A DNA stretch of 64,000 nt, taken from the NCBI GenBank assembly GCA_036785375.1, contig JAWMAR010000531.1:930001-994000 (forward strand), given 5' to 3'. Below are positions 24,124 through 64,000 of this stretch, in pieces. The notes beneath the pieces are model-generated. The model made no database searches and was not told where the DNA came from. It was given only the letters and a program-made list of their open reading frames with translations. The stretch comes from Leucoraja ocellata. Lineage: Eukaryota. A program made the position numbers and the translations under genes. Numbering within the stretch: position 1 is the stretch's first letter; each line of letters opens with the position of its first letter.

Positions 24124-24161
<38 letters not shown>

Positions 24162-37603: not shown

Positions 37604-37725
37604 GAATAATTAAAACTCGGTGACGTTGTGATGTCGAGGAGTTCTTAAGGGGAGATTTCTCAAGAACCAGAAACGGACTTCTGTCGGAAAACGTTTAGAT
37701 TCTGACCCTCGCCACCTCCTTCACC

Positions 37726-37774
37726 ATGTCTGAATGGATTCGCGTTCTGGCCGCGTTCGTGTTCTGCTTCCATA
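37726..37774 (+). CDS. IGL: Ig light chain cluster 3, leader exon
   Basis: Identical to the cluster 2 leader; GTAAGT at 37775. Confidence 0.9.
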
Positions 37775-37863
37775 GTAAGTAGAAAACCTAATCACCAGGC
37801 AGCTGCTCTTTGCATTCTGCTGATGATTGTATGTTTACAAATATTAATTTGTTATTTCACCAG

Positions 37864-40920: not shown

Positions 40921-40955
40921 AGGTGACGTTTCGGATCGAGACCCTCTTCAGACCT
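40921..40955 (-). ncRNA. Putative minimal type I hammerhead ribozyme motif (paralog of 25327-25362)
   Basis: Minus strand AGGU-CUGAAGA-GGGU(CUCG)AUCC-GAAA-CG-UC-ACCU. Confidence 0.55.
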
Positions 40956-41214
40956 TCTTCAGTCTAAAGAAGGGTCTGGTGCTGGGGGAAATGTTCTCGC
41001 TGCATGCAATCTTTCAAGACATCAAAGGAGTTTGCCTGTTTCGATGCGAATATCATTCATAGCTCTGAACTCCAGAGATTGCATCCCCGTCTACTGGATT
41101 TCCCCTCAAACGACAAATGATCTATCCCTGGAACCCGGGGAAGCAAGGTTAACACTTGATTCGGAAGGTCAGTTTTAATAATCCACTATGCTGTACTTCT
41201 TTCTATTTTCCCAG

Positions 41215-41537
41215 ATCCCCAGCCTCCCGCGGTGTCAGTCCTTGGGCCATCAGAGGAAGAAATCGCGGGAAAGGGCACCGCCACTCTGGTGTGTTTGGTG
41301 AACGGGTTCAACCCGGGCGTTGTGGACATTGAGTGGACGGTGGACGGCAGTGCGAGAAGTGATGGCGTCGACACAGGACGAGCCCAGCAGGATCAGGACA
41401 ACACGTTCAGTACCAGCAGTTACCTGACTCTGCCAGCCGCCTACTGGAACTCACACGAGCTTTACTCCTGTGTGGTTAAACACGAGACTCGGACAAACCC
41501 ACTGGAGACAAACATCGCCAGATCTGGTTGTGCTTGA
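41215..41537 (+). CDS. IGLC: Ig light chain cluster 3, constant exon (open frame)
   Basis: Nearly identical to cluster 2 C (ETQ versus ETR); AATAAA at 41575. Confidence 0.93.
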
Positions 41538-42173
41538 TTCAAAAATTATGATGTCTTGAATTGATACATTTGGAAATAAAATTCACGCACAGAGATTACA
41601 TGTCTGTTTTCTTTTATAGATGTTTTCAGTCACAGAAAATGCACAATGTAATTTAATAAGGAGAGGAGAGCAATAATGTCTCATTTATCGCCCTGCATTG
41701 TTCGACTATTTTGTACCAAAACAATGATATCCAAAATATGCATTAATACATTAGTAAATATGCTGAGCAAAAGTTTTAACTTCAGCAAATTAACTTGACA
41801 ACAGTTAGGACGGAAACGATGCAGTACACGAAGAGTTTATTCGCCATGGTTTTGTTTCCAGGCCATGGCGCCTAATTAAACGAATCCAAGTTGTCTTTTT
41901 AAGTAAGTTTATGGAAGCGTTAATTCGCAACCACCCAATTATGTGCAGAGTCACCTTCTCAGATTATATTTTCACGACAGTGACAATGTTGCCACTGTCG
42001 TAGTCCAGTACTCCAGTAGGGTACTCCAGTACCGTAGACTTCATTCAGACTGATTATGGAGTACACAACTCGCCGGGAAATTAAAACCGATCAAGTAAGA
42101 TGGGAAAGTTTGCACTGGTTTGTAGAGGGCCAGTGCAACAACAACCGGAGAGGGACTCGGGTGGTCGGAGGAT

Positions 42174-42790
42174 TTGAGTATAGAAGCTGGGATGTAATGT
42201 TAAAATTGTACAAGGCATTGGTGAGACCAAATCTGGAGTATGGTGTACAAATTTGGTCGCCAAATTATAGGAAGGATGTCAACAAAATAGAGAGTACAGA
42301 GGAGATTTACTAGAATGTTGCCTGGGTTTCAACAACTAAGTTACAGAGATAGGTTTGAATAAGTTAGTCTTTATTCTCTGGAGCGCAGAAGGTTAAGGGG
42401 GGACCTGATAGAGGTCTTTAAAATGATGAGAGGGATAGACAGGGTTGATGTGGACAAGCTTTTCCCTTTGAGAATAGGGAAGATTCAAACAAGAGGACAT
42501 GACTTCAGAATTAAGGGACAGGAAGTTTAGGGGTAATATGAGGGGGAACTTCTTTACGCAGAGAGTGGTGGCGGTGTGGAATGAGCTCCCAGTGGAAGTG
42601 GTGGAGGCAGGTTCATTGGTATCATTTAAAAATAAATTGGATAGGCATATGGATGAGAAGGGAATGGAGGGTTATGGTACGAGTGCAGGCAGGTGGGACT
42701 AAGGGGGAAAAATTGTTCGGCATGGACTTGTAGGGCCGAGATGGCCTGTTTCCGTGCTGTAATTGTTATATGGTTATATGGTTATAGGAT
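42174..42790 (+). mobile_element. Copy-B-specific 5'-truncated CR1 insertion
   Basis: Absent at the paralogous site (about 26705-26710); AGGAT at 42169-42173 and 42786-42790; (tggttata)n tail. Confidence 0.9.
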
Positions 42791-45257
42791 CTGGTGTCAA
42801 AGAAACTGGCAATGTTTGGGGTCGAGTGCGTGCATCCGGAATGTTTGTGGAGGGGAGGGGGCCAATATAAAGAGCTAAGAGTGTGGGGGGAAACAGGGCT
42901 GGCTGGTGAAAAGTGGAACTAGTTAAGAAAGGGCAGAAGGTGCCATGTTAAAGAGGGGGAGTGATAGAGTCGGGAGAATGCAGCTGGTGGGTGGGTGATA
43001 GAGACTAATGTGGGGGAGAGAAGCAACAATGAGAAAAATATGCCAGGGGGTGGGGGGAGGGGGGTGGATTTAGACACAGAAGGTGGAAGATAATGAGCAG
43101 GGACACGGGAGGAATCTCATAGTGGAGAAGTGAGGGTTGGTGGGCACATGGAACCAGTTGAACAAGGTGTAGGAGAAAGAAAGTGGTGTAGATCTGTTTA
43201 AAAGTTCATAAATTAATCAATTATGGAAATACACAGCCGTGTATCAAACTGGGATAGACACAAAGAGCTGTAGTAACTCAGCGGGACAGGCAGCATCTCT
43301 GGAGAGAAGGAATGGGTGACCAAGAAGGGTCTCGACCCGAAACGTCAATCATTCCTTCTCTCCAGAGATGCTGCCTGTCCCGCTGAGTTACTCCAGCTTT
43401 TTGTGTCTATCTTCGGTTTAAACAAGCATCTGCAGTTCTTCCCCACACATATTATCTCACTGGGATAGTTTACATTCGAAAGGAAGGGATAAATGAGATG
43501 GTTTTCACTGGAAATGAGATTGATAACAGGGTTCAGCATTGAGATGTCATCATGATGATAAGATATGTCACTATGACGATAATAGTCACTATGACGATAA
43601 AAAAAAACGATTCCCCAATGGGTGAGATGGTGCCCCTCAAATCAAATTGAATGAACTGTGGGCTAGCAGTTAGATCGGAAGCAGGGGGCGGGATGCAATA
43701 ATCCAGGGTTTGCTCATTGGCTGGTTAAGCGGAGTTCCATTCCAGTCAGGAGAGGCGCAGATCGTAAAACGTTACGATGGGGAATAAACTGGGTGAAAAC
43801 AAGAAACAAAACGGATTAAGTCAGTCAGCAAAATAATAGCATGTGGATTTGACCGTGGAGAATTAATAAATCGTCTGCGGTCCCAGGATTTCTGAGTGGG
43901 GTCCCTGTGTGCTTAATGGACTTGGAAGGGCATTTTGAACGGCCAAAACTGTCCCCGAAACGAGCTTGATAGAAGCTGATCCTTGAAAATTATGATGCGT
44001 GCGATGTGATGGTCCCCCCCCCCCCCCCGCCCCCCCTCCACCCCCCCCCCCCCCCCCCCCCCCCCCAATCCCCCCCTGAGCTCCAATTTCTCAACAAACC
44101 CCAGGGTCGTGCTAATTGGCCACTGTAACTTTCAGTTAATGGAGGAGCATGAATTGACATTGTGGGCGAATAGATCACGAGGAAATAAGAAGGAGAGCGG
44201 GATGGATTGGGTTGTTCTCTGACCTGCGAACACTCCCATCCATGTCGTTGTCAAATCTGGAATCGAAGCATGAAAATATCAAGCTGTCACCCGGATGTCC
44301 ATATATGGGACCTCCCATTAATGTGGAATTATTGACATTTATTTTCAATCATTCTGCTGAGAGCTTTTGTTATTTAAGTTATTCAAGTGGAAAATTTACT
44401 TACTCCTGGCCTACTCCTGCACCTATTGTCTATTGTCTATTGTCTATTGTGGGTGACACCAAAGAAAGAGGAAACTCATATTATCGGTAGACATAAATGG
44501 TCGATTAACTCAGCGGGACAGGCAGCGTTTCTGGAGAGAAGGAATGGGTGACGTTTTGGGTAAGACCCTCCATCAGACCCTTCGTCAGCTTCATGTGAAA
44601 TAACTCCAAAGTGATACATTGACCACGAATGATAGCACACGCACGTTGATTGAATGTAATGAATCCAAACCTTACGAAATTAATCTACTTTAAATTATTT
44701 AAGAGAAAGGAATTCTGTAGGTTAGGTAGTGAAAAACCTAGAAATTAATTGTTCAGCAATGTCATGCGTAGAGCTGTTAGAATGTGAAAATGAATCCCAT
44801 CAAGATATTTCGAATTTGGTCATTTAATAAGGAATACGAGTCCAATTAGGCCATTCGGCCCATCAAAGTCTACTCGACCATTCAATCGTGACTAATCTAT
44901 CACTCTCCCCTTACCCCATTCTACTACCTTCTCCCCATAACCTCTGACACCTATGAATTTGTGTATATATTTGGTATCAAAACATATACCAATGCATGGT
45001 TATCAAATAAATTAACATGCGCCAATGTGGATCACATTCCACCTAATTCTAAATTTTGGGTAGCCACCAGAGAGGAAACACAGTCGTCAACTACTACAAT
45101 GAACTCCCTCAATAGCAAGAATGTCCTTCCTCAAATCTGGACACCAAAACTGCACAGGGCCCTGAACAACTGCAGAAGAACCTCTCTGTTGCTATACTCA
45201 ACTCCTCTTGTGATGAAGGCCAACATGTCATTCGCTTTTCTCGCTGCCTGCTGTACC

Positions 45258-45457
45258 NNNNNNNNNNNNNNNNNNNNNNNNNNNNNNNNNNNNNNNNNNN
45301 NNNNNNNNNNNNNNNNNNNNNNNNNNNNNNNNNNNNNNNNNNNNNNNNNNNNNNNNNNNNNNNNNNNNNNNNNNNNNNNNNNNNNNNNNNNNNNNNNNNN
45401 NNNNNNNNNNNNNNNNNNNNNNNNNNNNNNNNNNNNNNNNNNNNNNNNNNNNNNNNN
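45258..45457. other. Assembly gap (200 N)
   Basis: N run. Confidence 1.
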
Positions 45458-45540
45458 GATCAGGTGGATGTATAGTCCCTTGCCCAGAGGAGGACCGGGT
45501 TCATGGTGACGGGCAAAGACTTAATAGGAATCTGAGGGGT

Positions 45541-46515
45541 TCCTATTCAATGTGTGCAAGACACGCTTTGATACAATTCAAGGTGGTTCACAGAGCTCAT
45601 ATGTCAAAAGATAAGTTAACTCGTTTTTATGGTCATATGAATCCTACCTGTGACAGATGTAAATCTGAAGTGGCCTCACTGACCCATATGTTTTGGTCCT
45701 GCCCTTCTTTGGAAAAATATTGGAAATATTTTTTTGTTACTATTTCTGTAGTCTTAGGCATAGGTTTAGAAACTGGAATTACTGCAATTTTTGGGCTGCC
45801 AATGTTAGATTCTAATCATTTGTCCCGCTCCGCCCATCGGTTGATTGCTTTTACCACATTAATCGCCAGAAGATCTATTTTATTCAAATAGAAAGACTCC
45901 TAACCCTCCGACCAGACTCCAGTGGTATTCGGAAACGGTATCATGTTTAAATTTTGAAAAAATCAGCAGTGACACTGTTGAACCCTTGGTTAAATTTGAT
46001 AAGACTTGGGTAAAATGTATTGAACATTTTCATACAACATAAATTGCTCCCTCTTTAACCGTTATAAAAAATATTTTATCTCTATTGGGTGGAACAGACA
46101 TGACGACAAACAGACTTACATTGTTGAAATTCTCAGTTCAGATTCGGGTTTGCTTTGCTTTGTTTTTTTAAACTATTTTATTTTTATGCGTATTTTATTA
46201 TTATTATTATCAATTTTTCTCTTTTTTTTTCTTTCTTTAGTTTAGGGGGGTCTTTTTCTGTTTTTGCTTTTTTTTACATTTATAAGTTTCCTTTTAAAGA
46301 TTTAACTATATTAACATAGCGACCTGGAGTTCTATATTCATTGTGTATTTTGACATTGGTCTCATATTAGGTTATATCTGTTATTAATGTAATCCTGATC
46401 CCTATGTATCAATACCATTGTTATGTTTATCATTATTCTTTTTGTTCTGTTTTTTATGTTTTATTTTTGCTTTTTTTGGGAAAAAAACAACAAAAAGATT
46501 TGTTTTTAAATAGAA
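45541..46515 (+). mobile_element. 5'-truncated L1-clade LINE (ORF2 C-terminal CCHC zinc knuckle plus 3' UTR) nested in a CR1
   Basis: CDRCKSEVASLTHMFWSC; T-rich UTR, A-rich tail; 15-bp TSD AGGAATCTGAGGGGT 45526-45540 / AGGAATATGAGGGGT 46516-46530. Confidence 0.88.
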
Positions 46516-47238
46516 AGGAATATGAGGGGTAACTGTTCATTATTACCTCCGCAAATGCCGATCCGCAGATGCTACATTAATTTGGTCAGGCGACCTTTAC
46601 ACTTTGAGTCGTGAATTACTGCGCATTACAATAGGATAGTATCACATACCACTTTTACAAGCACGACACACGTCGGGTAGTCAAAATAGCCCCCCAAAAC
46701 GGCTACTTTACTGACATTTGTAGTGATGTTCTGTCCCCTCAGGTCTTTTCTAAATGATCTGATACACAAGTAGAAGGGCAGCCTGTGGGGTTTATCATTT
46801 CTAAAATGACAAAGATATCTAAATATAGATTTAATGTGCGTTTTAATAAAACAGTGCTGCTGCTGTGACTGTGATCATGTTATGTTCAGCGATACGGAGG
46901 TAGACAAAAATGCTGGAGAAACTCAGCGGGTGAGGGAGCGAAGGAAATCAGCGATACGGATTCAGTTGGTCCGTTTAGATAAAATATTTCTATTCCGTTT
47001 TCATTGTTGATTAAACAGTTACCGAATATAATATTTAAAACTCGCAATCTGTTTAGTGTATATCTGCGGGGGGTTCATACAGAACATTATAGATTGTTTG
47101 TTTATAAAGAAGGGACAACTGTGACAATCCTTTTCATTCTGCTGGATGTATGAAGCTTTTTAGAAACACAAGTCTCTAAAATAAGACCTGCATGTTTCAC
47201 AGTGGCGAATATTTTGAGGAAGAATCTGGCAATTTCTG

Positions 47239-47317
47239 ATTGGCTTCGACGAGCATACCGGTTTGATTGGTTTGGATAATTAAACACACGGTGACATATC
47301 GTCATTCCATTTATAAA
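47239..47317 (+). promoter_or_regulatory. Cluster 4 promoter: two inverted CCAAT boxes, TAATTAA..GGTGAC, TATA-like TTTATAAA; no octamer
   Basis: ATTGG 47239 and 47266, TAATTAA 47277, TTTATAAA 47310, ATG 47388/47394. Confidence 0.6.
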
Positions 47318-47393
47318 GAGAGCCAGAGAGCAAGATTACACGCCACTTGTCCTGGAAACTGCCGCCCCATCGGACCTCAGTCGGTTAATGAAC

Positions 47394-47442
47394 ATGTCTT
47401 ATTGGATCCGTGTGGTCGGTGCGTTGGTGTTTTGCGCAGTTT
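47394..47442 (+). CDS. IGL: Ig light chain cluster 4, leader exon (MSYWIRVVGALVFCAV)
   Basis: Homologous to the cluster 2/3 leader; GTGAGT at 47443; in-frame upstream ATG at 47388. Confidence 0.88.
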
Positions 47443-47559
47443 GTGAGTATTTTACTTCCCTGGACATTATGCTTATTTCTGTTCACCATTAATTTGGGGT
47501 TATCTCCCACACTCCAACAAACTTAACAATTTTTTTTTCTGATATTTCTCCTTTCTCAG

Positions 47560-47905
47560 ACATAAGCGCGGCTGTTACAGTAACTCGGCCGCCTTCGATG
47601 TCCACCTCTACGGGACAGAACATTCAAATACCCTGCACCATATCGGGCACAAGTTCGGGCGCTAACTATGTCTCGTGGGTACCAACAAATTCCTGGCAAA
47701 ACTCCCAAGTTTTTATTCGTCCATACTACCGGCGGCACCATTTATAAAGGCACGGACATTCCAGACCGTTTTTCCATCTCGGTGTCAGGCAGCTCTGTAA
47801 CATTCGCAATATCTAGTGTTCAATCGGTGGATGCTGTTGACTATTACTGTGCCAAATGGGATAGTGGTTTACATTTTGGTAAAGGAACGAGGCTGGGTAT
47901 TGGCG
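47560..47905 (+). pseudogene. IGLV: Ig light chain cluster 4, germline-joined VJ exon (second V family) with +1 frameshift
   Basis: AAVTVTRPPS..C..; TGGGTAC instead of TGGTAC at 47677-47679 gives TAA at 47745; rest reads YQQIPG...YYC AKWDSGLH FGKGTRL; 346 nt. Confidence 0.82.
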
Positions 47906-48891
47906 GTAAGTAAAATATATTCATCGGCAGTTTTCTTTTTCTTTTAATGCAGATATTGCTTGATTTAATGTCCTGAGTTCACATGATACGTGATTGGGGC
48001 AGTTGTATTTCAGTGCAGATGGTGCGATCTTGCTGTACAGATGTTCCGAGTTCACTTGGCCATAACTCAGTGAAATGACTGGGAAAGCGAGCTAATGCTT
48101 TGTCTTGAGCTTCGTTCAATAAATTGTGGAAATATTTGCAGTGATTGTCCACATATGAAAGGAAATTGCTTGGGTAACGGGGTTCACCAACGTCAATATT
48201 CAACACTGTCAAAAATCCGGTTGACGGGTTGAACAAGGATATCAAAATGCCAAATGCGAAAGGAGAAAGTTTCGCACATTTCCTTCAGAAATTGTGTTTA
48301 ATACGTAGAGCAGCTTTTCGTGGACGCAGCCGTGTATTTCAAATTTAAATGGACATTCGAACTACAATGTAATTCTTGCTTGTGAACTATATCTGCGAAT
48401 CGGTGACCGTGGCCTTCGAAGACTAGTTTCCATATATTTTTGCCGAACATAAATAGCGTCACCCTCCATCTCAATGGTGCCGACAATTAAATAAGTTTAA
48501 ATCTGTTATTATAAATGTCGCGACCGCGAATCGTTTATATCTGCTGATATATTTAAATAAATGTAAATCCGGAAATGTGTAGTAAAATGAACATTATAAA
48601 AGTTATAATAATGTATTCAGTTTTATAAAATACTGCAGCCATGATCTATCACAGATGGTTTCCCGGTGTTTATACAGAGGGTAGACAGGATCTATTTTAG
48701 TTGCTTTCACGCACTTTATTTATTGTTCACCCAATTAAAATAAACACACTATAATGGTTTGAAATAGGTCGAGAATAAAACGACATTTCTATAAATGAAT
48801 AAATGAGTGCTTTAATGAGATGTATTTTCGGTAAATAATGATATCTCAACGACAGCATTTCTCCAATTAAATGTGACTTCTTATTAAACAG

Positions 48892-49214
48892 ATCCTCGGG
48901 CACCGATCGTGACGGTCTTGCCGCCTTCAGCCGATGAAGTTACCTCAAAGGGCACCGCCACCCTGGTGTGTTTGGTGAACGGCTTTAATCCGGGCTCGGT
49001 CGCCGTTGAGTGGACAGTCGACGACAGTGCAAGAAATAGCGACGTTGAGACCAGCCCGATCCAGCAGGATAAGGACAACACGTTCAGTCTCAGCAGTTAC
49101 CTGACTCTGACAGCCTCAGACTGGAACTTACACGATCTTTACTCCTGTGTGGTTACACACCAGGCTCAGGCAAACCCACTTAAGACAAACATCGAGAGAT
49201 CCAGCTGTATCTGA
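48892..49214 (+). CDS. IGLC: Ig light chain cluster 4, constant exon (open frame)
   Basis: DPRAPIVTVLPPS..TATLVCLVNGFNP..YSCVVTH..ERSSCI*; AATAAA at 49480. Confidence 0.93.
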
Positions 49215-50624
49215 TGTTGGAAACGTGAGGCTGACCTGACTAAGTTAGTTTATCATCATTGGGTTCGTCCATGTGACAAAGTTAGTAATGTATTGGACTT
49301 CAGTGTTTTCGTTCAGAAATGCCATTTGTAGTTGAAACTTCGATTTTAATGACTTGTTCACTTTAAATTTAGTTGTTTCGAAAGAATGTCGTTCTTGAAT
49401 GAAGCATCAAGTAGATTCAATTGCGTTATCCAACAGCATGGATGTTGTTATTGTACCCATGGTATCTTTGTAGCCGTTGAATAAAGTTTAAAAAACGCAT
49501 TTCAAATGCATTGTTGATTCCCTCAGTTTTATTTCTGACCCGAACCATGATGGCTTAACACGGGTTGTGTTGTCTCGCAGATTTGAGCTAGCAACACTGA
49601 TTTTCTTTCTCTATTTCGATCACTAATTACAATCGTACAACAGTAGTGGGCCACTCGTCCATTTATACCATTTATACCACGCGTTCTACAGCGCTTTGTC
49701 AGTTCTTGTGCAACATGATTCAGCCAAAGAACCGTATAAACCAAGCAGGGCAAACGTGGTCTTAAACCCCAAATTATCACATAAATAAACAGAAAATACT
49801 GTTCATACTCAGTAAGTCGGGCGGTGTGTGGAAAGTGAGAAATAGATTAGACGTTTCAGGCTGTTTAAAAAAAATCAAAAACGTCCCTACCAGCCTCGTG
49901 CGTTCAGGGTTTGTTAAATATATCTTTGTTCACAAGGTGCACCGCTACATAATTAAATAAAATACGTGTGCATACGTGGAAATCTGGAAATTTGGAAACG
50001 CCATTAATTCCCAACACATCAGCAGGTTTCTGTAAACTGATGGGTTGTTCGCACCTGCACTTTACACCCCTCGCACTAAGCATGGCACCTCCATCCTTCA
50101 TCACAGAAGGCCGTGCCTTTCACACTAATCGGTGACGGGGTTTGTCTTTAAATATTTACAATCATTACACCTTATTTCTTCTTTATTTCTTCTGATTGTC
50201 AGCTTTAAAGAAACGGGGTGATTATTGGCGTTAGCAGAACTGCCATTGAGTTTGTATGTGGCGTGTACGTGTCTCACGGTGGTAATACACTGGAACTGGG
50301 TAACAACACTCTCAATAAAGCAGGATAATATCTACAGAAAGATGCGATGTATGCAAGGCAGCTTCATATAGACACGTGCAGAAAGAGAGCGAGGGGTGGG
50401 AGAGAGAGAGAGCGAGGGGGGAGGGGAAGAGAGAGAGAGAGGGGGTGAGAATAGGACGGGGGCGGGGTTAATAGTGAACAATGAGGGAACTATAGGTCAT
50501 AGTTAGAGGACAATCAGTCCCGGCCAAACCCCTGACCTCTGTCACAAATCGCTTTTCACTTATTCCAAGCCTTATTCCCAATTATTTTCACGTTACATGA
50601 GCAACCTGGGCTTGAGTCTTAATG

Positions 50625-50840
50625 AATGGGAAGGAGCTGCAGATGCTGGTTTAAAGCAAAGATAGACACAAAAATCTGGAGTAACTCAGCGAGTCAGAAA
50701 GCATCTCTGGAGAAAAAGAATCGGTGACGTTTTGGGGCGAGACCCTTCTTCAGACTGTTTGAAGAAAGGTCTCGATCAGAAATGTCACCTATTCATTTTC
50801 TCCAGAGATGCTGGCTGACCCGCTAATTTACTCCAGCTTT
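50625..50840. mobile_element. Fold-back short repeat (degenerate cores); paralog about 61975-62188
   Basis: Inverted arms of the same family. Confidence 0.75.
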
Positions 50841-51230
50841 ATAGAAACATAGAAACATAGAAACTTAGAAAATAGGTGCAGGAGTAGGCCATTCGGCCCT
50901 TCGAGCCTGCACCGCTATTCAATATGATCATGGCTGATCATCGAACTCAGTATCCTGCACCAGCCTTCTCCCCATACCCCCTGATCCCTTTGGCCACAAG
51001 GGCCACATCTAACTCCCTCTTACATATAGCCAATGAACTGGCCTCAACTACCTTCTGTGGCAGAGAATTTCAGAGATTCCAGAGATGTGTGAAACATGTT
51101 TTCCTCATCTCGGTCCCAAAAGATTTCCCCCCCTTTCCTTAAACTGTGACCCCATGTCCTGGACCTTCCCAACGTTGGGAACCATCTTCCTGCATCTAGC
51201 CTGTCCAACCCCCTAAGAATTTTGTAAGTT
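50841..51230 (-). mobile_element. CR1-like LINE 3' end; paralog 62189-62580
   Basis: (atagaaac)n tail; ETYKILRGLDRLDAGR. Confidence 0.88.
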
Positions 51231-52789
51231 TCAGCCATGACCTCATTATGTGTCTTATCTTTTCTAAATGATCCGGATTGTATGCATTTTTGGCTGATTC
51301 GAATAAATGGTCACATATCTGCAATTGCTCACCTGCTGGTTAGTTATTTTGGAAATTCGTCTAAATCTGTAAATACTGAGCCTACTTTCACTCGGAAAAA
51401 ATGGTCAATTAAAACGCCTTGACTATGCCCCTCATTCAAATCACCATTACACCTTCCCTCTTCAAAGGGACCAATTCCGGTTATTCCCAGGCTGCCATTA
51501 TCATGCCCATTTTCTTCCCAATTTCTTCTGCGGCTTGTAATGAAGGAGCCAAAAACAAAGATTTGAGTCTTCCCGGCCTTGCCTTTTCCTTCCGTTCCCG
51601 TAGTGCCCTGGTTATCCATTGTGAGCTCCACCTTTCCCTGGTCATCGATATCGGTTCTCATTTGTTCTGAATCTTTTCATAGAGACATAGAAACATAGAA
51701 AGTAGGTGCAGAAGGAGGCCATTCGGCCGTTCGAGCCAGCACCGCCATTCAATGAGATCATGGCTGATCGTCCCCACTCAATAACCCGTGCCTGCCTTCT
51801 GCCCATATCCCTTGATTCCACTAGCCTCTAGAGCTCTAACTCTCTCTTAAATCCATCCACTGATTTGGCCTCCACCGCCCTCTGTGGCAGGTACTGACCC
51901 AAAAGGCCGCATTTTCTCCTGTCTCGTAATGTCATTACAATATTTTACCGTTGCCTTTCGAAGATGTCTATGTGTGAGCGCCAGGACCGGCGAGAAAATC
52001 ATGCACTTACACTCATGCCATGTATAAATGCTGTCGGCCTCTCTCGCTCATCATCCGCGTGAATGCTGTTAAACACGATGTCAGTGTCATAACTTCAGAT
52101 CTATCCATGATGGCCCACAATGTCTGTGCGAACCTAATGCCAATGTCATCTGCCTGCCATGTATAATGTCTATATCCCTCCATTCCCTATCTGTTCACGT
52201 GTTTGCCTAAATGCCTCTTGAACCTTGCTGGGTATCTACTTACACCGCTTCTTCTAGCAAAGCGTTGCACACTTTCTGTTTAAAAAATACATGCAAAGTG
52301 TGCCCCCTTCAAACGTCCCCTCGCCTACTTTAATAAACTATATTATGTAATACTTCGGCCCTGGACTCCTAAGTAAAGCGACTTATCTTCACTAAGGGTA
52401 TTAGAGCAATAGATAGGGATGGGAAATCGATGCAGTGTCTGGCCAACAATACATTAATCCCCAAAATAAATCAATGGATAGGGATTCAATAAACCGACAA
52501 TGTCAGTTAACGTGTAGGAAGGAACTGCAGATGCGGGTTTAAATCGAAGATCGATACAAAATGCTCGAGTAACGCAGCGGGACAGGAAACGTCCCTAGAT
52601 AGAAGGAATGTGTGACGTTTCGGGTCTGAGGCAGGGTCTCGACCGGAAAGGTCACAAATTCCTTCTGTCCAGAGATGTTGCCTGTCCCGCTGAGTCACTC
52701 CATCATGTTGTATCTAATGTTGGTTAAGGTCTGTTTCGTTTCAGAGAGCTCGAAAAAATGCTGAAAATGCTGAAACCTCCAGGGTGGTT

Positions 52790-53020
52790 ATCTTCGGTTT
52801 GCTTCCAGTTCCTCATGCTGGCGAGAGCAGGAACAGGGAGATACGGGACCTGAATGTATGGCTGAGGAACTGGTGCAGGGGCAGGGATTTAGATTCTTAG
52901 ACCACTGAGATGTGTTTTGGAATAAGGGGGAACTGTACAAAAGGGACGGATTGCACTTTAAAAGACGGGGGACCAGCATTCTGGCAGTCAGGTTTGCCAC
53001 TGCTGAACAGGTGGTTTTAA
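52790..53020 (+). mobile_element. CR1-like LINE ORF1 fragment (SGNH esterase-like)
   Basis: Reads QGFRFLDH*DVFWNKGELYKRDGLHF; DGLH motif of CR1 ORF1. Confidence 0.7.
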
Positions 53021-53048
53021 TTTAAACTAGACCAAGTACAGACCCGTT

Positions 53049-54200
53049 GGGGGGGGGGGGGGGGGGAGTATTTTATTTAAAATGTGTACATGAGAAGAGG
53101 GGAGGGAGGGGAGGGAGGGGAGAGGGGGAGGAGGAAACGGGAGAGATTTGGGAGGGAGAGCAGAGCGCGGTAGGGGGCGAAAGAGGGGGATGGGAAGGGG
53201 GAGGAGAGTGGGGAGTGGGAGGAGAGCGGGGAGGTCAGGACGGGGGGAGGTAGGGGGTGGGAGAGGGATAGCGGGGATTGGTGCAAGAGAGAGGGGGTGG
53301 GGGGAGATGGGGGTGAAGAGAAGTGAGGAAGTGGTGGGAGGGGAGGAGAGAGAGGGTGAGGATAGAGGGGGGAAGGGGAAGAGGAGAGTGGGGTGGGGGA
53401 GGGGATGAGAGAGGGGTGGGGGAGGGGGAGAGAGGGGTGGGGAAGGGGAGAGAGGGAGGAGGAGGGAGGAGGGGAGGAGGGAGGGGAAGGAGGTGGGAGA
53501 GGGGGAAGAGTGTGGAGGGAGGGGGAGAGTGGTAGGGGGCGGGGGAACTGTGGAATGGGAGGGGGAGAGGGGTAGAGGGGAGAGATGGGGAATAGTGGTG
53601 AGGGAGGGGGAGGATAAGAGGGCGGAAAAGAGGCAGAGGGGTAGGGGGAGTGGTGGAAGAGGCAGAGGTGGGTAGGGGGGAGAGGTGGGGGGAGAGAGGG
53701 TGGGGGTTGGCGTTGGAGGGGAGGAGGGAGAGGGGTGAGGAGAGAGGGAGAGGGGAGAAAGGGGGAAAGGGAGGTGGAGAGGGGTGTGGGAGGGGGTGAG
53801 AGAGGGTGGGGAGGAGAGGGGGAAGATGATGGGGAGGCGGAGAGAGGAGAGATGGAGGGGAGGATGGATGGGAGGGAGGAGGGAGAGCGGAAGAGTGTGG
53901 AAGGAGGGGGAGAGAGGTAGGGGGTAGAGAGGGGGGAAAGTGTGGAGGGAGGGGGAGAGCGGAGAGATGGGAAAGAGTGGGGAGGGAGAGAGAAGGGAGG
54001 GGGGAGAAAGAGGGGTGGGGGAGGGAGATGGGGAGGAGTGGGGGATGGGGGTTGGTGGAGATAAGTGTAAGACTGGGGAGGGAGGGGAGGAGGGAGATGG
54101 GGTAGGGGAGGGAGGGGGAGTATGGAGTGAGGGGGAGAGGGTTGGGGGGAGAGAGGGGAAATAGTGGGGACGGAGAGTGGAAGGGGGAGGGGTAGGGAAG
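53049..54200 (+). repeat. 1.1-kb G/A-rich low-complexity tract
   Basis: Almost only G and A on the + strand with dozens of G3-G6 runs. Confidence 0.95.
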
Positions 54201-54559
54201 TCCATCTGTTCCCCATTCCCTATCACCCCCAATCCTCTTTCTCTATTCCCACACACGTGATGACGCGCTTCGACACTAGCTGCGGGGGTGGGGGGAGGGG
54301 CTGGGGCTGGGGCTGCTGCAAAGGCATATGTAACTTGATCCATTCCGATTGGACATCTGTGAGCATTGGGCATTGTGACATCACGTTCAACAACATTCTA
54401 TGGGTGAGAGCCGTTTTTTTTTTAATTTGGTTGGAGGAGAGAAGGATTTTATTAAAAATGTGTACATAAACACGACGAAATTTATGGAGTGGATACTTGG
54501 AATGAAAAGTGAAATCTCTACCGAAATGGAAAAAATCTGGGCGCACTGGTGATCACTTT

Positions 54560-55805
54560 CCAATGTTCAATAGATTAAGGATCAGTTCCTATGGATTAGA
54601 GGATAGCTAATGTTATCCCACTTTTCAAGAAAGGAGTGAGAGAGAAAACGGGGAATTACAGACCAGTTAGCCTGACTTCGGTGGTGGACAGATGCTGGAG
54701 TCAATTATTAAATATGTAATAATGGGGCATTTGGATAGCAGTAAAAGGATTAGTCCAAGTCAACATGGATTTATTAAAGGGAAATCATGCTTGACTAATC
54801 TTCTGGAATTTTTTGAGGATATGACAAGTAAAATGGATGAAAGGGAGCCAGTGGGTTTAGTATATCTAGACATTCACAAAGCCTTTGATAATGCCACAAA
54901 GTTGGGTGGCAGTGTGAACTGTGAAGAGGATGTTAGGTGGTTGCAGGGTGACCTGGACAGGTTGAGTGAGTGGGCAGATGCGTGGCAGATGCAGTATAAT
55001 ATAGATAAATGTGAGGTTAACCACTTTGGCGGCAACAACAAGGGAGAAGATTATTATCTCAGTGGGGTTAGGTTAGGTAACGGGGAGGTGCAGCGAGACC
55101 TGGGCGTCTTTGTACACCAGTCACTGAAAGTTGGCGTGCAGGTGCAGCAGGCAGTGAAGAAAGCTAATGTTGGCCTTCATAACAAGAGGATTTCAGTATA
55201 GGAGTAAAGAGGTTCTACTGCAGTTGTATAGGGTTCTGGTAAGGCCACATCTGGAGTATTGCGTACAGTTTTGATCTCCTAATCTGAGGAAGGACATCCT
55301 TGTGATTGAAGCAATGCAGCATAGGTTCAAGAGATTGATCCCTGGTATGGCGAGACTGTCCTATGACGAAAGATTGAGAAGACTAGGCTTGTATTCGCTG
55401 GAGTTTAGAAGGATGAGGGGTATCTTATAGAAACACTTTAAATTATAAAAGGACTGCACAAGCTAGATGCAGGAAAAATGTTCCCAATGCTGGGCGAGTC
55501 CAGAACCAGGGCCACAGTCTTGGAGGCCATTTAAGACCGAGGTGAGAAAAAAAGTTTTCACCCAGAGAGTTGTGAATTTGTGGAATTCCCTGCCACAGAG
55601 TGCAGTGGAGGCCACATCACTGGATGGATTTAAGAGAGAGTTAGGTAGAGCTCTAGAGGCTAGTGGAATCAAGGGATATGGGGAGAAGGCAGGCACGTGT
55701 TATTGATTGGGGACGATCAGCTATGATCGCAATGAATGGCGGTGCTGACTCGAAGGGCCGAATGGCCTCCTTCTGCACCTATTTTCTATGTTTCTATGTT
55801 TCTAT
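54560..55805 (+). mobile_element. CR1-like LINE ORF2, internally deleted, with 3' tail
   Basis: SQHGFIKGKSCLTNLLEFFE..KAFD joined to TKLGG..LQGDLDRL; ctatgttt tail. Confidence 0.92.
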
Positions 55806-56069
55806 GAAAAGATTCATAACAAATGAGACCCGAAATCGACGATCAGGGAAAGGTGGAGCTCACAATGAACAACCAGGACACGGGGGAATCGGGAGAAAAA
55901 GGCAAGGCGGGAAGATTCAAATGTCTGCTGTTGGCTCCGTCAGAAAAATTACAAGCCGCAGAAGAAATTGCGAAGAAATTTGGCATGATCATGGCAGCTC
56001 GAAAGTAATCGGAATTGGTTCCTTTGAACAGGGAAGGTATAATGGCGATTTGAATGAGGGACATAGTCC

Positions 56070-57260
56070 GCTCACCCAACCTATATCCAAGTCACCCTAC
56101 AACCCCATACCACCTTCCTCACACCTCACACTGTCACCCAGCTTTGTGTCATCCGCAAACTTGGAAATGTTACTTTTAATTCCCTAATCTAGATCGTTAA
56201 TATACATTGTAAATAACTGGAGATCCAGCACTGAGCCTTGCGACACCCCACTAGTCACTGCCCCACTAGTCACTGCCATTCTGAAAAGGACCCATTAATT
56301 CCTTTTCTTTGCTTCCTGCCAGCCAACCAGTTCCTTATCCATGTCAATACCCTACTCCCAATACCATGTGCTCTAATCTTTCACACTCATCTCTTGTGTG
56401 GGACCTTATCGAAGGATTTTTGAAAGTACAGATACAAACGTGGGAGGTTTTGCAGATAGTGGAGATGGTTTTGAAAAAGTGCAGCAGGAACTGGATCAAT
56501 TGGCCAGGTAGGCTGAGGAATGGTTGATGGAATATAATGCACAGAATGTGAAGTGTTTTATTTTGGGAAGCTTAACATGGGTAGGACCTATGCAGTCGAG
56601 GTAGATCGGGTGGTCAAAAAGGCTTTTGGCACATTGGCCTTCATCAGCCCGTGTAATGAATATAGAGATTGGGAGGTCTTGTTGCAGATGTATAAGACGT
56701 TGGTGACATCACATTTAGATTATTGTGTTCAGTTTGGGCACCATCCTATAGGAAAGATTTCGACAAGCTGGAAAGGGTACAGAGAAGATTTTCGAGGATG
56801 TTGCCGTGACTAGAGGGTTTGAGGTATAGGGAGGAGTTGAATAGGCTGGGACTCTATTCCTTGGAGCGCAAGAAGATGAGAGGAAATCTTATAGAGGTGT
56901 ATAGGGTCGTGAGAGGAATAGATCGGGTAGATGCACAGTCCCTTGTCCAGAGTAGGTGAATCGAGGACCAGGTTTATGGTGACAGGGCAAAGATTCTATA
57001 GGAATCTGAGGGGTAACTTTTTCTCAGAGAGGGTGGTGGGTGTATGGAACAAGCAGCCAGAGGAGGTAGTTGTGCCAGGGACTATCCCAACGTTTAACAA
57101 AACAGTTAGACATGTACATGGATATGACAGATTTGGAGGGATATGGACCCAATACGGGCAGGTGGGACTAGTGTAGATGGGACATGTTGGCCGATGTGGG
57201 AAAGGTGGGCCGAAGGGCCTGTTTCCACTCTCTATGATTCTATGACTCTCTTTGACTCTA
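56070..57260. mobile_element. CR1-like fragments (minus 56070-56430, plus 56430-57260)
   Basis: VVKKAFGTLAFI..LVTSHLDYCVQF; FFSERVVGVWN; ctatgact tail. Confidence 0.8.
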
Positions 57261-58723
57261 TGGGGATCGTGCAGCTTCTGCGGATCGGCGTTTGGGGAGG
57301 TAATAATGAGCAGCCATGAGCCAGTGCAATCTTTCGCGTGTTCACGTTGCAAAGTTTAAAACGTGCAGCAGTGAGAGAAGGATGAGAACGGTGAGAGCAG
57401 GGACCAGTGTAAATAAACATTAGGTAAACGTGCTTATCGTAGTGACATGCCGACGTTCAGAGTGGCTTATGCGCGCAACTACATCTCATTCTGTAGATGG
57501 TACACATTGAAGTCACTTTAGTTTAATTTGGAGATACAGCGCCTAAACAGGCCCTTCTACCCACTGATCAACAGTCCCCGTACATTAACATTATCCTACA
57601 CACTTTAGGGACAATATATAATTTTACCAAGCCAATGAACCTAGCAACCTGTCTTTGTAGTGTGGGAGGAAACCGGAGCTACCTGGGAAATCCCAGGCAG
57701 GTCATGGGGAAAACGTAGTGGTGAAAGGATGAACGGTTAAGTTAATGGATCGCTGACCAGTCATGTTCACTGCTAAACTAATCTAGTTTCATGACACTTT
57801 AAGGACAATCATTCATGGTAATTCTTTATCTCACACGCTATTTCCCGAAAACCGCTCTTCGCGTTTCTCCCTTGTCAGTTTTGCCAGATAGCTGGAGTGC
57901 TGGAGTGCCCGTGTTCTATACAACTTTAATTGAATATGGATGTGCTGTGTGTAGAATTCCTGTCGTCCTGTCGTACTACAAAGTCGAAAGAACTCTGGAA
58001 GTGGTCGGTGAGAGCCAATATGACCCCTTTTACTTCACTCATACATGCATTAATTTGGTACAGGCAACCTTTCAACTTTGAGTCGAGGCAAGTTTCGTGA
58101 ATTACTGCGTATTACAATAGGAGAGTATCACAGACCGCTTTTCCAAGCGCGACACACATCGGGTAGTCTAAGTTGCCTCCAAAACTGCAACTTTACTGAC
58201 ATCTGTAGTGATGTTCTTTCTCCCCAGGTCCTTTCTAAATGATCTGATACACAAGTAGAAGGGCAGCCTGTGGGGTTTATCATTTCTAAAATGACAAAGA
58301 TATCTAAATATAGATTCAATGTGCTTTTTAATAAAACAGTGCTGATGCTGTGACTGTGATCATGTTATGTTCAGCGATACGGAGGTAGACAAAAATGCTG
58401 GAGAAACTCAGCGGGTGAGGGAGCGAAGGAAATCAGCGATACGGATTCAGTTGGTCCGTTTAGATAAAATATTTCTATTCCGTTTTCATTGTTGATTAAA
58501 CAGTTACCGAATATAATATTTAAAACTCACAATCTGTTTAGTGTATATCTGCGGAGTGTTCATACAGAACATTATAGATTGTTTGTTTATAAAGAAGGGA
58601 CAACTGTGACAATCCTTTTCATTCTGCTGGATGTATGAAGCTTTTTAGAAACACAAGTCTCTAAAATAAGACCTGCATGTTTCACAGGGGCGAATATTTT
58701 GAGGAAGAATCTGGCAATTTCTG

Positions 58724-58802
58724 ATTGGCTTCGACGAGCATACCGGTTTGATTGGTTTGGGTAATTAAACACACGGTGACATATCGTCATTCCATTTATA
58801 AA
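58724..58802 (+). promoter_or_regulatory. Cluster 5 promoter: two inverted CCAAT boxes, TATA-like; no octamer
   Basis: ATTGG 58724 and 58751, TAATTAA..GGTGAC, TTTATAAA about 58795. Confidence 0.6.
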
Positions 58803-58878
58803 GAGGGCCAGAGAGCAAGATTACACGCCACTTGTCCTGGAAACTGCCGCCCCATCGGAGCTCAGTCGGTTAATGAAC

Positions 58879-58927
58879 ATGTCTTATTGGATCCGTGTGG
58901 TCGGTGCGTTGGTGTTTTGCGCAGTTT
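58879..58927 (+). CDS. IGL: Ig light chain cluster 5, leader exon
   Basis: MSYWIRVVGALVFCAV; GTGAGT at 58928. Confidence 0.88.
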
Positions 58928-59048
58928 GTGAGTATTTTACTTTCCTGGATATTATATGTATTTCTGTTCACCATTAATTTGGGATTATCTCCCACACTTC
59001 AACAAACTTAATATTTTCTCTTTTTTTCTGATATTTCTCCTATCTCAG

Positions 59049-59384
59049 ACATAAGCGCGGCTGTTACAGTAACTCAGCCGCCTTCGATGTCCACCTCTAC
59101 GGGACAGAACATTCAAATACCCTGCACCATATCGGGTTCGGGCGCTAACTATGTCTCGTGGTACCAACAGATTCCTGGCAAAACTCCCAAGTATCTATTC
59201 TACTATGAATCCGGCAGCATTTATAAAGGCACGGACATTCCAGACCGTTATTCCATCTCGGTGTCAGGCAACTCTGTAACATTCGCAATATCTAGCGTTC
59301 AATCGGTGGATGCTGCTGACTATTACTGTGCCAAAGATTATAATGGTTTACATTTCGGTAAAGGAACGAGGCTGCGTATTGGCG
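59049..59384 (+). CDS. IGLV: Ig light chain cluster 5, germline-joined VJ exon (second V family), intact
   Basis: AAVTVTQPPS..C..WYQQIPG..DYYC AKDYNGLH FGKGTRL; 336 nt in frame; GTAAGT at 59385. Confidence 0.94.
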
Positions 59385-60369
59385 GTAAGTAAAATATGTT
59401 CATCGGACAGCGCGCTGTTTTCTTTTCATTTTAATTCAGATATTGCTTGATGTAATGTCCTGAGTTCACATGATAGGTGATTGGGCCAGTTGTATTTCAG
59501 TGCAGATGGTGCGATCTTGCTGTACAGATGTTCCGAGTTCACTTGGACATAACTCAGTGAAATGACTAGGAAAGCGAGCTAATGCTTTGTCTTGAGCTTC
59601 GTTCAATAAATTGCGGAAATATTTGTCCAGATATGAAAGGAAATTGCTTGGGTAACGGGGTTCACCAACGTCAATATTCAACACTGTCAAAAATCCGGTT
59701 GACGGGTTGAACAAGGATATCAAAATGCCAAATGCGAAAGGAGAAAGTTTCGCACATTTCCTTCAGAAATTGTGTTTAATACGTAGAGCAGCTTTTCGTG
59801 GACGCAGCCGTGTATTTCAAATTTAAATGAACATTCGAACTACAATGTAATTCTTGCTTGTGAACTATATCTGCGAATCGGTGACCGTGGCCTTCGAAGA
59901 CTAGTTTCCATATATTTTTGCCGAACATAAATAGCGTCACCCTCCATCTCAATGGTGCCGACAATTAAATAAGTTTAAATCTGTTATTATAAATGTCGCG
60001 ACCGCGAATCGTTTATATCTGCTGATATATTTAAATAAATGTAAATCCGGAAATGTGTAGTAAAATGAACATTATAAAAGTTATAATAATGTATTCAGTT
60101 TTATAAAATACTGCAGCCATGATCTATCACAGATGGTTTCCCGGTGTTTATACAGAGGGTAGACAGGATCTATTTTAGTTGCTTTCACGCACTTTATTTA
60201 TTGTTCACCCAATTACAATAAACACACTATAATGGTTTGAAATAGGTCGAGAATAAAACGACATTTCTATAAATGAATAAATGAGTGCTTTAATGAGATG
60301 TATTTTCGGTAAATAATGATATCTCAACGACAGCATTTCTCCAATTAAATGTGACTTCTTATTAAACAG

Positions 60370-60692
60370 ATCCTCGGGCACCGATCGTGACGGTCCTGCC
60401 GCCTTCAGCCGATGAAGTTACCTCAAAGGGCACCGCCACCCTGGTGTGTTTGGTGAACGGCTTTAATCCGGGCTCGGTCGCCGTTGAGTGGACAGTCGAC
60501 GGCAGTGCAAGAAATAGCGACGTTGAGACCAGCCCGATCCAGCAGGATAAGGACAACACGTTCAGTCTCAGCAGTTACCTGACTCTGACAGCCTCAGACT
60601 GGAACTTACACGACCTTTACTCCTGTGTGGTTAAACACCAGGCTCAGGCAAACCCACTTAAGACAAATATCGAGAGATCCAGCTGTATCTGA
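60370..60692 (+). CDS. IGLC: Ig light chain cluster 5, constant exon
   Basis: DPRAPIVTVLPPS...ERSSCI*; AATAAA at 60961. Confidence 0.95.
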
Positions 60693-63600
60693 TGTTGGAA
60701 ACGTGAGGCTGACCTGACTATGTTAGTTTATCATCATTGGGTTCGTCCATGTGACAAAGTTAGTAATAATGTATTGGACTTTGGTGTTTTCGTTCAAAAA
60801 TACCACTTGTAGTTGAAACTTCGATTTTTATGACTTGTTCACTTTAAATTTAGTTCTTTCGAAAGAATGTCGTTCTGGAATGAAGCATCAAGTAGATTCA
60901 ATTGCGTTATCCAATAGCATGGATGTTGTTATTGTACCCATGGTATCTTTGTAGCCGTTGAATAAAGTTTAAAAAACGCATTTCAAATGCATTGTTGATT
61001 CCCTTTGGTTTATTTCTGACCCGAACCATGATGGCTTAACACGGGTTGCGTTGTCTCGCAGATTTGAGCTAGCAACACTGATTTTCTTTCTCTATTTCGA
61101 TCACTAATTACAATCGTACAACAGTCGTGGGCCACTCGTCCATTTATACCACGCGTTCTACAGCGCTTTGTCAGTTCTTGTGCAACATGATTCAGACAAA
61201 GAACCGTATAAACCAAGCAGGGCAAACGTGGTCTTAAACCCCAAAATATCACAGAAATAAACAGAAAATACTATTAATACTCAGTAAGTCGGGCGGTATG
61301 TGGGAAGTGAGAAATAGATTAGACGTTTCAGGCTGTTTAAAAAAAATCAAAAACGTCCCTACCAGCCACGTGCGTTCAGGGTTTGTTAAATATGTCTTTG
61401 TTCACAAGGTGTACCGCTACATAATTAAATAAAATTCGTGGCCATACGTGGAAATCTGGAAATTTGGAAACGCCATAAACTCCTTCATCACAGAAGGCCG
61501 TGACCTTCACACTAATCGGTGACGGGGTTTGCATTTAAATATTTTCAAACATTACTCCTTATTTCTTCTTTATTTCTTCTGATTGTCAGCTTTAAAGACA
61601 CGGGGTGATTATTGGCGTTAGCGGAACTGCCACTGAGTTTGTATGTGGCGTGCACGTGTCTCACGGTGGTATTACACTGGAACTGGGCAACAACACTCTC
61701 AATAAAGCAAGATAATATCTACAGAAAGATGCGATGAATGCACGGCAGCTTCATATAGACACGTGCAGAAAGAGAGAGGGGGGGGGGGGGGGGGTGAGAA
61801 TAGGACGGGGGCGGGGTTGATAGCGAACAATGAGGGAACTATATGCTATAGTTAGAGGACAATCAGTCACGGACAAACCCCTGACCTCTGTCACAAATCG
61901 CTTTTCACTTATTCCAAGCTTTATTCCCAATTATTTTCACGTTACATGAGCAACCTGGGCTTGAGTCTGAAAGAATGGGAAGGAGTTGCAGATGCTGGTT
62001 TAAAGCAAAGATAGACACAAAGATCTGGAGTAAATCAGCGGGTCAGAAAGCATCTCTGGAGAAAAGGAATCGGTGACGTTTTGGGGCGAGACCCTTCTTC
62101 AGACTGTTTGAAGAAAGGTCTCGATCCGAAATGTCACCTATTCATTTTTTCCAGAGATGCTGTCTGACCCGTTAATTTACTCCAGCTTTATAGAAACATA
62201 GAAACATAGAAACTTAGAAAATAGGTGCAGGGGTAGGCCATTCGGCCCTTCGAGCCTGCACCGCTATTCAATATGATCATGGCTGCTCATCCAACTCAGT
62301 ATCCTGCACCAGCCTTCTCTCCATACCCCCTGATCCCTTTAGCCACAAGGGCCACATCTAACTCCCTCTTACATATAGCCAATGAACTGGCCTCAACTAC
62401 CTTCTGTGGCAGAGAATTTCAGAGATTCCAGAGATGTGTGAAAACATGTTTTCCTCATCTCAGTCCCAAAAGATTTCCCCCCCCTTTCCTTAAACTGTGT
62501 CCCCCTGTGCTGGACCTCCCAAACGTCGGGAACAATCTTCCTGCATCTAGCCTGTCCAACCCCCTAAGAATGTTGTAAGTTTCAGCCATGATCTCATTAT
62601 GTGTCTTATCTTTTCTAAATGATCCGGATTGTATGCATTTTTGGCTGATTCGAATAAATGGTCACATATCTGCAATTGCTCATCTCATGGTTAGTTATTT
62701 TGGAAATTCCTCTAAATCTGTAAATACTGAGCCTACTTTCACTCGAAAAAATGGTCAATTAAAACGCCTTGACTATGCCCCTCATTCAAATCACCATTAT
62801 ACCTTCCCTGTTCAAAGGGACCAATTCCGGTTATTCTCGAGCTGCCATTATCATGCCCATTTTCTTCCCAATTTCTTCTGCGGCTTGTAATGAAGGAGCC
62901 AAAAACAAAGATTTGAGTGTTCCCGGCCTTGCCTTTTCCTTCCGTTCCCGTAGTGTCCTGGTTATCCATTGTGAGCTCCACCTTTCCCTGGTCATCGATA
63001 TCGGGTCTCATTTGTTCTGAATCTTTTCATAGAGACATAGAAACATAGAAAGTAGGCGCAGAAGGAGGCCATTCGGCCCTTCGAGCCAGCACCGCCATTC
63101 AATGAGATCATGGCTGATCGTCCCCAATCAATAACCCGTGCCTGCCTTCTGCCCATATCCCTTGATTCCACTAGCCTCTAGAGCTCTAACTCTCTCTTAA
63201 ATCCATCCAGTGATTTGGCCTCCACTGCCCTCTGTGGCAGGTACTGACCCAAAAGGCCGCATTTTCTCCTGTCTCGTAATGTCATTACAATATTTTACCG
63301 TTGCCTTTCGAAGATGTGTATGTGTGAGCGCCAGGACCGGCGAGAAAATCATGAACTTACACTCATGCCATGTATAAATGCTGTCGGCCCTCTCTCGCTC
63401 ATCATCCGCGTGAATGCTGTTAAACACGATGTCAGTGTCATAACTTCAGATCTATCCACGATGGCCCACAATGTCTGTGCGAACCTAATGCCAATGTCAT
63501 CTGCCTGCCATATATAATGTCTATATCCCTCCATTCCCTATCTGTTCACGTGTTTGCCTAAATGCCTCTTGAACCTTGCTGGGTATCTACTTACACCGCT

Positions 63601-64000
63601 TCTTCTAGCAAAGCGTTGCACACTTTCTGTTTAAAAAAGACATGCAAAGTGTGCCCCCTTCAAACGTCCCCTCGCCTACTTTAATAAACTATATTATATA
63701 ATACTTCGGCCCTGGACTCCTAAGTAAAGCGACTTATCTTCACTAAGGGTATTAGAGCAATAGATAGGGATATGAAATCGATGCAGTTTCTGGCCAACAA
63801 CACATTAATCCCCAAAATAAATCAATGGATAGGGATTCAATAAACCGACAGTGTTAGTTAACGTGTAGAAAGGAACTGCAGATGCTGGTTTAAATCGAAG
63901 ATCGATACAAAATGCTCGAGTAACGCAGCGGGACAGGAAACGTCTCTAGATAGAAGGAAAGGGTGACGTTTCGGGTCTGAAGCAGGGTCTCGACCGGAAA

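Follow-up and report, generated by a model that had tools for sequence, protein, structure and literature searches.

Five immunoglobulin (Ig) light-chain clusters, each made of a fused variable-joining (V-J) exon and a single constant (C) exon, lie within 64,000 nt of the skate Leucoraja ocellata (contig JAWMAR010000531.1, positions 930,001 to 994,000 of the forward strand; this stretch is called the window, and coordinates count from its first letter). Clusters 4 and 5 were found in a duplicated unit, one copy at 46609-52649 and the other at 58095-64000; their start codons (ATG at 47394 and at 58879) are separated by 11.5 kb. The divergence between these two copies is a patchwork, and it is rather likely that concerted evolution produced it, in which gene conversion or crossover would homogenise the C side and the promoter and selection would keep variants of the complementarity-determining regions (CDR) 1 and 2.

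Divergence between clusters 4 and 5

The features compared are as follows, with substitutions counted between cluster 4 and cluster 5.

46761-47393 (+): cluster 4 promoter and 5' untranslated region (UTR), low-divergence tract (9/580 over 46761-47340)
47310 (+): cluster 4 TATA-like motif TTTATAAA
47394-47442 (+): cluster 4 leader exon (donor 47443), matching skate leaders
47443-47559 (+): cluster 4 leader intron (10/117 and a 4-nt indel)
47560-47905 (+): cluster 4 germline-joined V-J exon, frameshifted, matched by tblastn in two frames (23/335)
47647-47652 (+): 6-nt segment of CDR1 missing from cluster 5 in the comparison of the two
47719-47738 (+): divergent CDR2 block with a 3-nt indel (8 substitutions at 19 aligned sites; five changed codons, all replacements)
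47857-47864 (+): CDR3 block, in cluster 4 in the family-typical WDS state
47906-48155 (+): 5' J-C intron of cluster 4, first 250 nt, about background divergence (12/241 and 2 indels; p=0.29 vs flank)
48156-48891 (+): 3' J-C intron of cluster 4, near-invariant, AT-rich and CpG-retaining (2/736); possible conversion tract and/or candidate intronic enhancer
48892-49214 (+): cluster 4 C exon (5/323, 1.55%)
49215-52649 (+): duplicated downstream flank, the background (121/3302, 3.7%)
58879-58927 (+): cluster 5 leader exon, from sequence comparison
59049-59384 (+): cluster 5 germline-joined V-J exon, open frame, with short CDR1 and short CDR2 (V-set match)
59336-59343 (+): cluster 5 private CDR3 block, from the skate alignment
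59385-60369 (+): cluster 5 J-C intron, near-invariant part 59634-60369, from comparison with cluster 4
60370-60692 (+): cluster 5 C exon (C1-set match; protein identical to the C of Le_P0014)

In addition, the 5' UTR and leader together differed at 1/103 sites. A flat profile in a formal alignment would have told against the initial annotation of this locus, and the alignment was uneven beyond chance: in a scan-corrected permutation of 173 substitutions over 5615 sites, the minimum of 2 per 700 nt and the maximum of 30 per 350 nt both gave p=0.0002. The roughly two differences which that annotation had counted in the 3' J-C intron were recovered over 48156-48891 vs 59634-60369 (at 48352 and 48738), although the span it gave stopped at the cluster 5 V-J exon and so omitted the cluster 5 intron (59385-60369) that it cited. 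Its CDR3 block change was also found, being TGGGATAGT in cluster 4 and GATTATAAT in cluster 5 (5/24 sites). As for the in-frame CDR indels, those of 6 nt in CDR1 and 3 nt in CDR2 stood, while a 1-nt extra G at 47677, which frameshifts cluster 4, had been overlooked.

The rise of divergence described for the leader intron and immediately 3' of J held against the low tracts but not against the downstream flank. The V-adjacent introns pooled to 22/358, compared with 121/3302 in the flank, giving p=0.03 with boundaries picked post hoc, and flank windows of equal size reached 21-25. The V-adjacent introns are about at background; what stands out is high divergence in the CDRs and low divergence in two tracts, one being the promoter and the other the 3' intron with the C exon. 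The statement that the flanks were homogenised did not hold for the outer flanks, with 3.7% divergence downstream and 18/151 substitutions upstream of 46760.

Variation of the CDRs across skates

The two window genes were aligned with 19 skate database proteins (21 rows; eight ray proteins omitted). For other organisms, four of 23 listed runs were compared with cluster 4, on the basis of 40 of 369 substitution rows and 32 pieces, the contigs being majority paths from which rare variants are dropped. Mean pairwise difference among 13 subfamily members was 0.31 in CDR1, 0.46 in CDR2 and 0.15 in CDR3, with 0.06 in the framework (FR) and 0.065 in C, so the data support a germline diversity centred on the CDRs. 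Between clusters 4 and 5, the changed codons of CDR2 and CDR3 were all replacements (8/8 vs 6/10 in framework), codons too few for dN/dS.

Most of these states were met again outside the window. Short CDR2 occurred in 11 of the 19 database rows and short CDR1 in Ar_P0007 and Rl_P0003; the YYES-G of cluster 5 was seen in Ar_P0009, and the VHTTGGT of cluster 4 in Le_P0014. The 6-nt CDR1 loss of cluster 5 was present in contigs of runs X2 and X10, and its CDR2 letters in X2. As other skates carry these CDR1 and CDR2 variants too, a recent mutator is unnecessary for them. All four possible combinations of CDR1 and CDR2 length existed in the family, which means that either the blocks are shuffled or the indels are recurrent.

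CDR3 was different. It read K-W-D-S/N-G in 20 of the 21 rows, cluster 5 being the sole exception. With up to 5 mismatches allowed, the window yielded no donor for the CDR2 or CDR3 blocks; the matches obtained were the partner copy and one upstream stretch that is unrelated. A DY-containing CDR3 occurred in 2 of 123 proteins with parsed CDR3, neither like cluster 5, and in a metagenome scan with the cluster 5 V, none of the 582 pattern matches was a relative. Four candidates came from a search for V-length proteins, and none of them passed.

Conflicting trees of V and C

Trees were built from the 21 protein rows, without kappa, sigma or sigma-2, and the groups for approximately unbiased (AU) tests were named after the trees had been seen. 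The V tree contained two subfamilies, each with Leucoraja and Amblyraja genes (100/99), and a clade of Leucoraja plus window genes was rejected (p-AU 6.7e-24). In the C tree, five Leucoraja and the two window rows came together (94/96, not starred), and a clade of the V subfamily was rejected (p-AU 0.033). V trees track old subfamilies across species and C trees track species, as concerted evolution predicts. Annotated skates have several copies of the subfamily (4 models in Leucoraja and 7 in Amblyraja), and the V of cluster 4 was nearest to Le_P0014.

Two database proteins appear as the clearest cases of V/C conflict. Le_P0022 carries a foreign V with a local C: its V differed by 4-9% from Amblyraja genes of subfamily 2 and by about 20% from other genes of its own species, and its C by 2% from clusters 4 and 5. 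The C exon of Le_P0011 was a mosaic, having both replacements of the cluster 4 C exon and then an Amblyraja-like end. Homogenisation of the C-exon side is thus supported by the disagreement of the protein trees and by the Le_P0011 mosaic. In the proposed process, exchanges between the copies, by ectopic gene conversion or unequal crossover, would make the C-exon side and the promoter alike, selection would keep distinct and old CDR1/CDR2 variants, and a regulatory element under purifying selection would add to the low divergence of the 3' intron. With V and J fused beforehand, the inherited sequence itself serves as the initial binding site, and the differences between joined copies would constitute the primary repertoire.

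Several points weigh against concerted evolution as the explanation. Support in the C tree was moderate, its AU p of 0.033 is marginal, and the groups were post hoc. The database proteins are gene models and possibly assembly chimeras; the evidence for a mosaic is at the protein level, and conversion in clusters 4 and 5 is inferred. Taken by themselves, these two clusters also fit a model in which the promoter, 3' intron and C exon are held by purifying selection within a neutral background of 3.7-6%, and the 3' tract was near-invariant between three organisms, a likeness that neutral conversion would not keep. The CDR3 block of cluster 5 had neither relative nor donor in the searches run. Finally, among the 36 isolated C/G differences of the gene domain of clusters 4 and 5, 20 fell on WRC/GYW motifs, compared with 27% expected (p=0.0003), and the excess persisted without CpG (14/28, p=0.013), the only contrary result left unexplained.

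The near-invariant tract of the 3' J-C intron

The tract at 48156-48891 has 35% GC and 30 CpG, with a CpG observed/expected ratio of 1.36 (0.65 window-wide); such retention suggests escape from germline methylation decay. Contigs of other organisms differed from cluster 4 in the tract at 2/751 (X5), 0/296 (X10) and 2/500 (X2) sites, and in the downstream flank at 15/842, 14/332 and 11/562, respectively. The initial annotation had named a collapsed-read artefact as what could undo the near-identical intron, and near-identity in contigs from three organisms shows that collapse is not the only cause here. At position 48352 the letter of cluster 4 differed from the reading of all four runs, and as cluster 4 keeps its own letter, majority polishing did not overwrite the tract. 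The near-identical tract is probably real.

No similarity of the tract to the introns of clusters 1-3 was found, and its motifs were few (one E-box and no kB site). Its conservation across organisms, together with the CpG ratio, gives a hint of a constrained element, and a conserved enhancer may contribute to the low divergence, which makes the tract a candidate enhancer. In mammalian kappa, an enhancer lies in the J-C intron upstream of C.

Conservation across organisms in part favours purifying selection, and the whole profile could be read as a simple duplication under selection only: promoter, 3' intron (as enhancer) and C exon under purifying selection, introns and flanks drifting to about 4-6%, CDRs positively selected, and no conversion between clusters 4 and 5. 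The V-near introns at about background and the CpG ratio of the tract agree with this, as does near-identity of the tract in three labelled organisms whose flanks differ by 2-4% (Fisher p of 0.025, 0.003 and 0.0001 in the three comparisons). However, the contigs are majority paths, and their flank differences may lie between paralogues instead of species. Moreover, at 0.27% over 736 non-coding bases the tract is less diverged than the C exon (1.55%), it is unlike the introns of clusters 1-3 and has few recognisable motifs, and selection only would leave both the V/C tree conflict and clusters 2/3 unexplained. It is considered an unlikely account, with a modest chance of being right.

Assembly and the frameshift of cluster 4

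The extra G at 47677 breaks the cluster 4 frame. It was missing from contigs of all four runs (4/4), so it is either a private lesion or an assembly error. Cluster 4 also has three replacements where the other skate rows were constant, namely Q to R (47587), Y to F (47711) and A to V (47837), and in view of these and the extra G, cluster 4 may be a pseudogene.

An assembly artefact could go further, if the two units were alleles set in tandem or if the intron had been overwritten by collapsed-read polishing, with the odd V changes being errors or hypermutated B-cell reads. Single-base indels are in line with it (52 in about 9.7 kb for clusters 2/3, and 6 in 6.1 kb for clusters 4/5, including the cluster 4 frameshift), the best run share was 0.61, and no contig piece covered the whole stretch. 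Yet there was no N gap across 45458-64000, the letter at 48352 was kept against all four runs, the C replacements of cluster 4 recurred in Le_P0011, annotated skates have several copies of the subfamily, and the tract was equally invariant in independent runs. Such an artefact is therefore regarded as improbable.

Possible hypermutation in the germline

The hotspot excess could instead mean that hypermutation by an enzyme like activation-induced deaminase (AID) leaks into the germline, the joined gene being mutated from the leader intron to the 5' J-C intron and acquiring heritable, CDR-focused tandem changes. Were this so, a footprint like that of somatic hypermutation, including the unique CDR3 block of cluster 5, would be heritable while conversion resets the C side; we hold both the process and this consequence to be very improbable. 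In shark hypermutation, 38-51% of changes are tandem (38% in framework) and the hotspot bias is 4.3-fold, according to the available part of PMC5931798. In both cluster pairs divergence began in the leader intron and faded 3' of J, and adjacent substitutions made up 15/42 in the zone of clusters 4/5 vs 16/110 in the flank (p=0.006). RAG is described as active in shark germ cells in the accessible portion of PMC2193156.

The details fit less well. The tandem excess sat in CDR codons, with 0/10 in framework and 5/20 in V-near non-coding DNA (16/110 in the flank, p=0.32). The hotspot excess was present also in the low tracts (9/15), the untranscribed promoter included; the hotspot share was 11/21 in the V zone and 24/75 in the flank, a difference short of significance (p=0.12), and clusters 2/3 had no excess (5/19, 15/44 and 10/35). 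Of 10 gene-domain changes from C/G that were polarised to the cluster 4 branch, 4 lay at hotspots; most sites were unpolarised. CDR1 and CDR2 states were found again in other skates. Shark somatic hypermutation resembles the present case in CDR-focused replacements, adjacent substitutions and some WRC/GYW excess in clusters 4/5, but it is somatic, and here framework tandem changes were 0/10 and the hotspot excess reached beyond the V zone and was absent in clusters 2/3. The AID-like hotspot excess is weak. No report that AID mutates Ig genes in the germline of sharks or skates was found in the literature, subscription papers being mostly outside the search.

The broader proposal of the initial annotation, a general process that diversifies the binding site in the germline, did not survive these comparisons, given CDR1/CDR2 states common to paralogues of other skates, introns near the flank background, no tandem change in framework and no hotspot excess in clusters 2/3. 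Since selection and conversion explain the data, a dedicated germline mutator is not needed; a special mutator is not supported, and ordinary gene-family evolution is likely.

Clusters 2 and 3 as a comparison pair

22295-26037 (+): cluster 2, joined V-J and C
37726-41537 (+): cluster 3, joined V-J (two 1-nt frame breaks relative to cluster 2) and C

Between these clusters, substitutions numbered 1/245 in the promoter and leader, 36/314 in V-J and 2/325 (0.6%) in the C exon. The J-C intron differed at 188/699 (27%) in its 5' part and 76/812 (9%) in its 3' part, unalignable stretches excluded, and the flanks at 58/2217 and 70/2822 (2.5-2.6%). The earlier view that clusters 4/5 repeat the pattern of this pair applies to the conserved promoter, leader and C, but not to the J-C intron, which has diverged by 27% and 9%. 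An intron at 27% between flanks at about 2.5% needs recombination, and a single duplication with selection alone is insufficient.

The 52 single-base indels of this pair lie in the alignment of 19615-29119 with 35020-45248, and two of them break the cluster 3 V exon, suggesting that the region is poorly polished. CDR3 was short in cluster 2 (22700-22765) and long in cluster 3 (38130-38205). Comparable forms were seen in sawfish and shark lambda proteins (short in P0097 and P0125; long in P0102, P0083 and P0132). The two lengths are suggestive, and only that, of ancient lineages; against it, the V domains of clusters 2 and 3 were still each other's closest (12/88).

Gene identity and layout

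Clusters 4 and 5 appear to be tandem germline-joined light-chain clusters of lambda type, the isotype being taken from the closest relatives. Cluster 5 had a V-set domain (E=3.7e-17) and a C1-set domain (E=2.2e-27), and its C exon shared 68% identity with sandbar shark lambda C (P0125). Its nearest relatives were skate lambda-like gene models. Among the 120 matches listed, most were lambda-like or light chains of unnamed isotype, with one skate protein auto-named kappa-like and two named sandbar shark lambda; comparison with solved structures matched only generic antibody V domains. A scan of the window for recombination signal sequences gave two weak matches, none in clusters 4/5, so none was found between V and J, and contigs from runs X3 and X5 (guessed to be DNA) read across the V-J junction.

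Lambda (type II, NS3) clusters of cartilaginous fish, as far as the consulted parts of the sources describe them, are likewise V-J-C clusters with V and J fused in the germline. Unlike them, clusters 4 and 5 lie as close together as 11.5 kb and are without the exact octamer seen at clusters 1-3. That octamer, ATTTGCAT, is located upstream of clusters 1-3 (5663, 22165, 37596) and is absent from the promoters of cluster 4 (47100-47393) and cluster 5 (58585-58878), where ATTTCTGAT and TGATTGG motifs are found in its place. A high-copy repeat fragment (46895-46940) lies within the conserved promoter tract of clusters 4/5, almost unchanged between the copies. About 1.1 kb of G/A-rich low-complexity DNA (53050-54200) is situated between clusters 4 and 5, outside the duplicated unit. 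Assembly gaps occur at 13629-13958 (330 N) and 45258-45457 (200 N), the latter between clusters 3 and 4.

Relation to known systems and significance

All lambda genes studied in cartilaginous fish are germline-joined, according to the accessible parts of two reviews (PMC4279169, PMC5192425). Joined lambda genes are without combinatorial or junctional diversity, and their mode of diversification is therefore a fair question. In skate, the type I (sigma-2) joined family of Anderson et al. 1995 (PMC2192082) is similar in its abstract, with at least 89 joined clusters, amino-acid differences concentrated in the CDRs and more replacement than silent change; it is another isotype, and the abstract is silent on introns, flanks and conversion. 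A divergence peak under gene conversion is described for red/green opsins, RHCE/RHD and the major histocompatibility complex, where, in the available part of PMC3924837, selected sites are likewise divergent amid homogenised neighbours, the tree of a gene is lineage-wise in some parts and species-wise in others, and large indels block conversion. Unlike those systems, the present family has many copies, the outer flanks of clusters 4/5 are unhomogenised, and the low tract is conserved between organisms too. For shark UrIg2, conversion among Ig-like C domains is reported in the part seen of PMC12227049. No report on concerted evolution of elasmobranch constant regions was found in the open literature, subscription journals being mostly outside the search, and the specific V/C conflict may be unreported in that literature.

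The pattern is real, was partly misdescribed earlier, and is most likely one more case of gene-family dynamics that are already known, in joined lambda clusters that are known as well. Both ideas behind it are familiar, as CDR-focused germline differences have been published for skate sigma-2 and the model of conversion plus selection is standard; the importance would be much greater only if germline AID activity were true. The locus would offer a concrete case in which old V and CDR variants are retained and the C side is homogenised, and its 736-nt intron tract is a candidate light-chain enhancer in skate.

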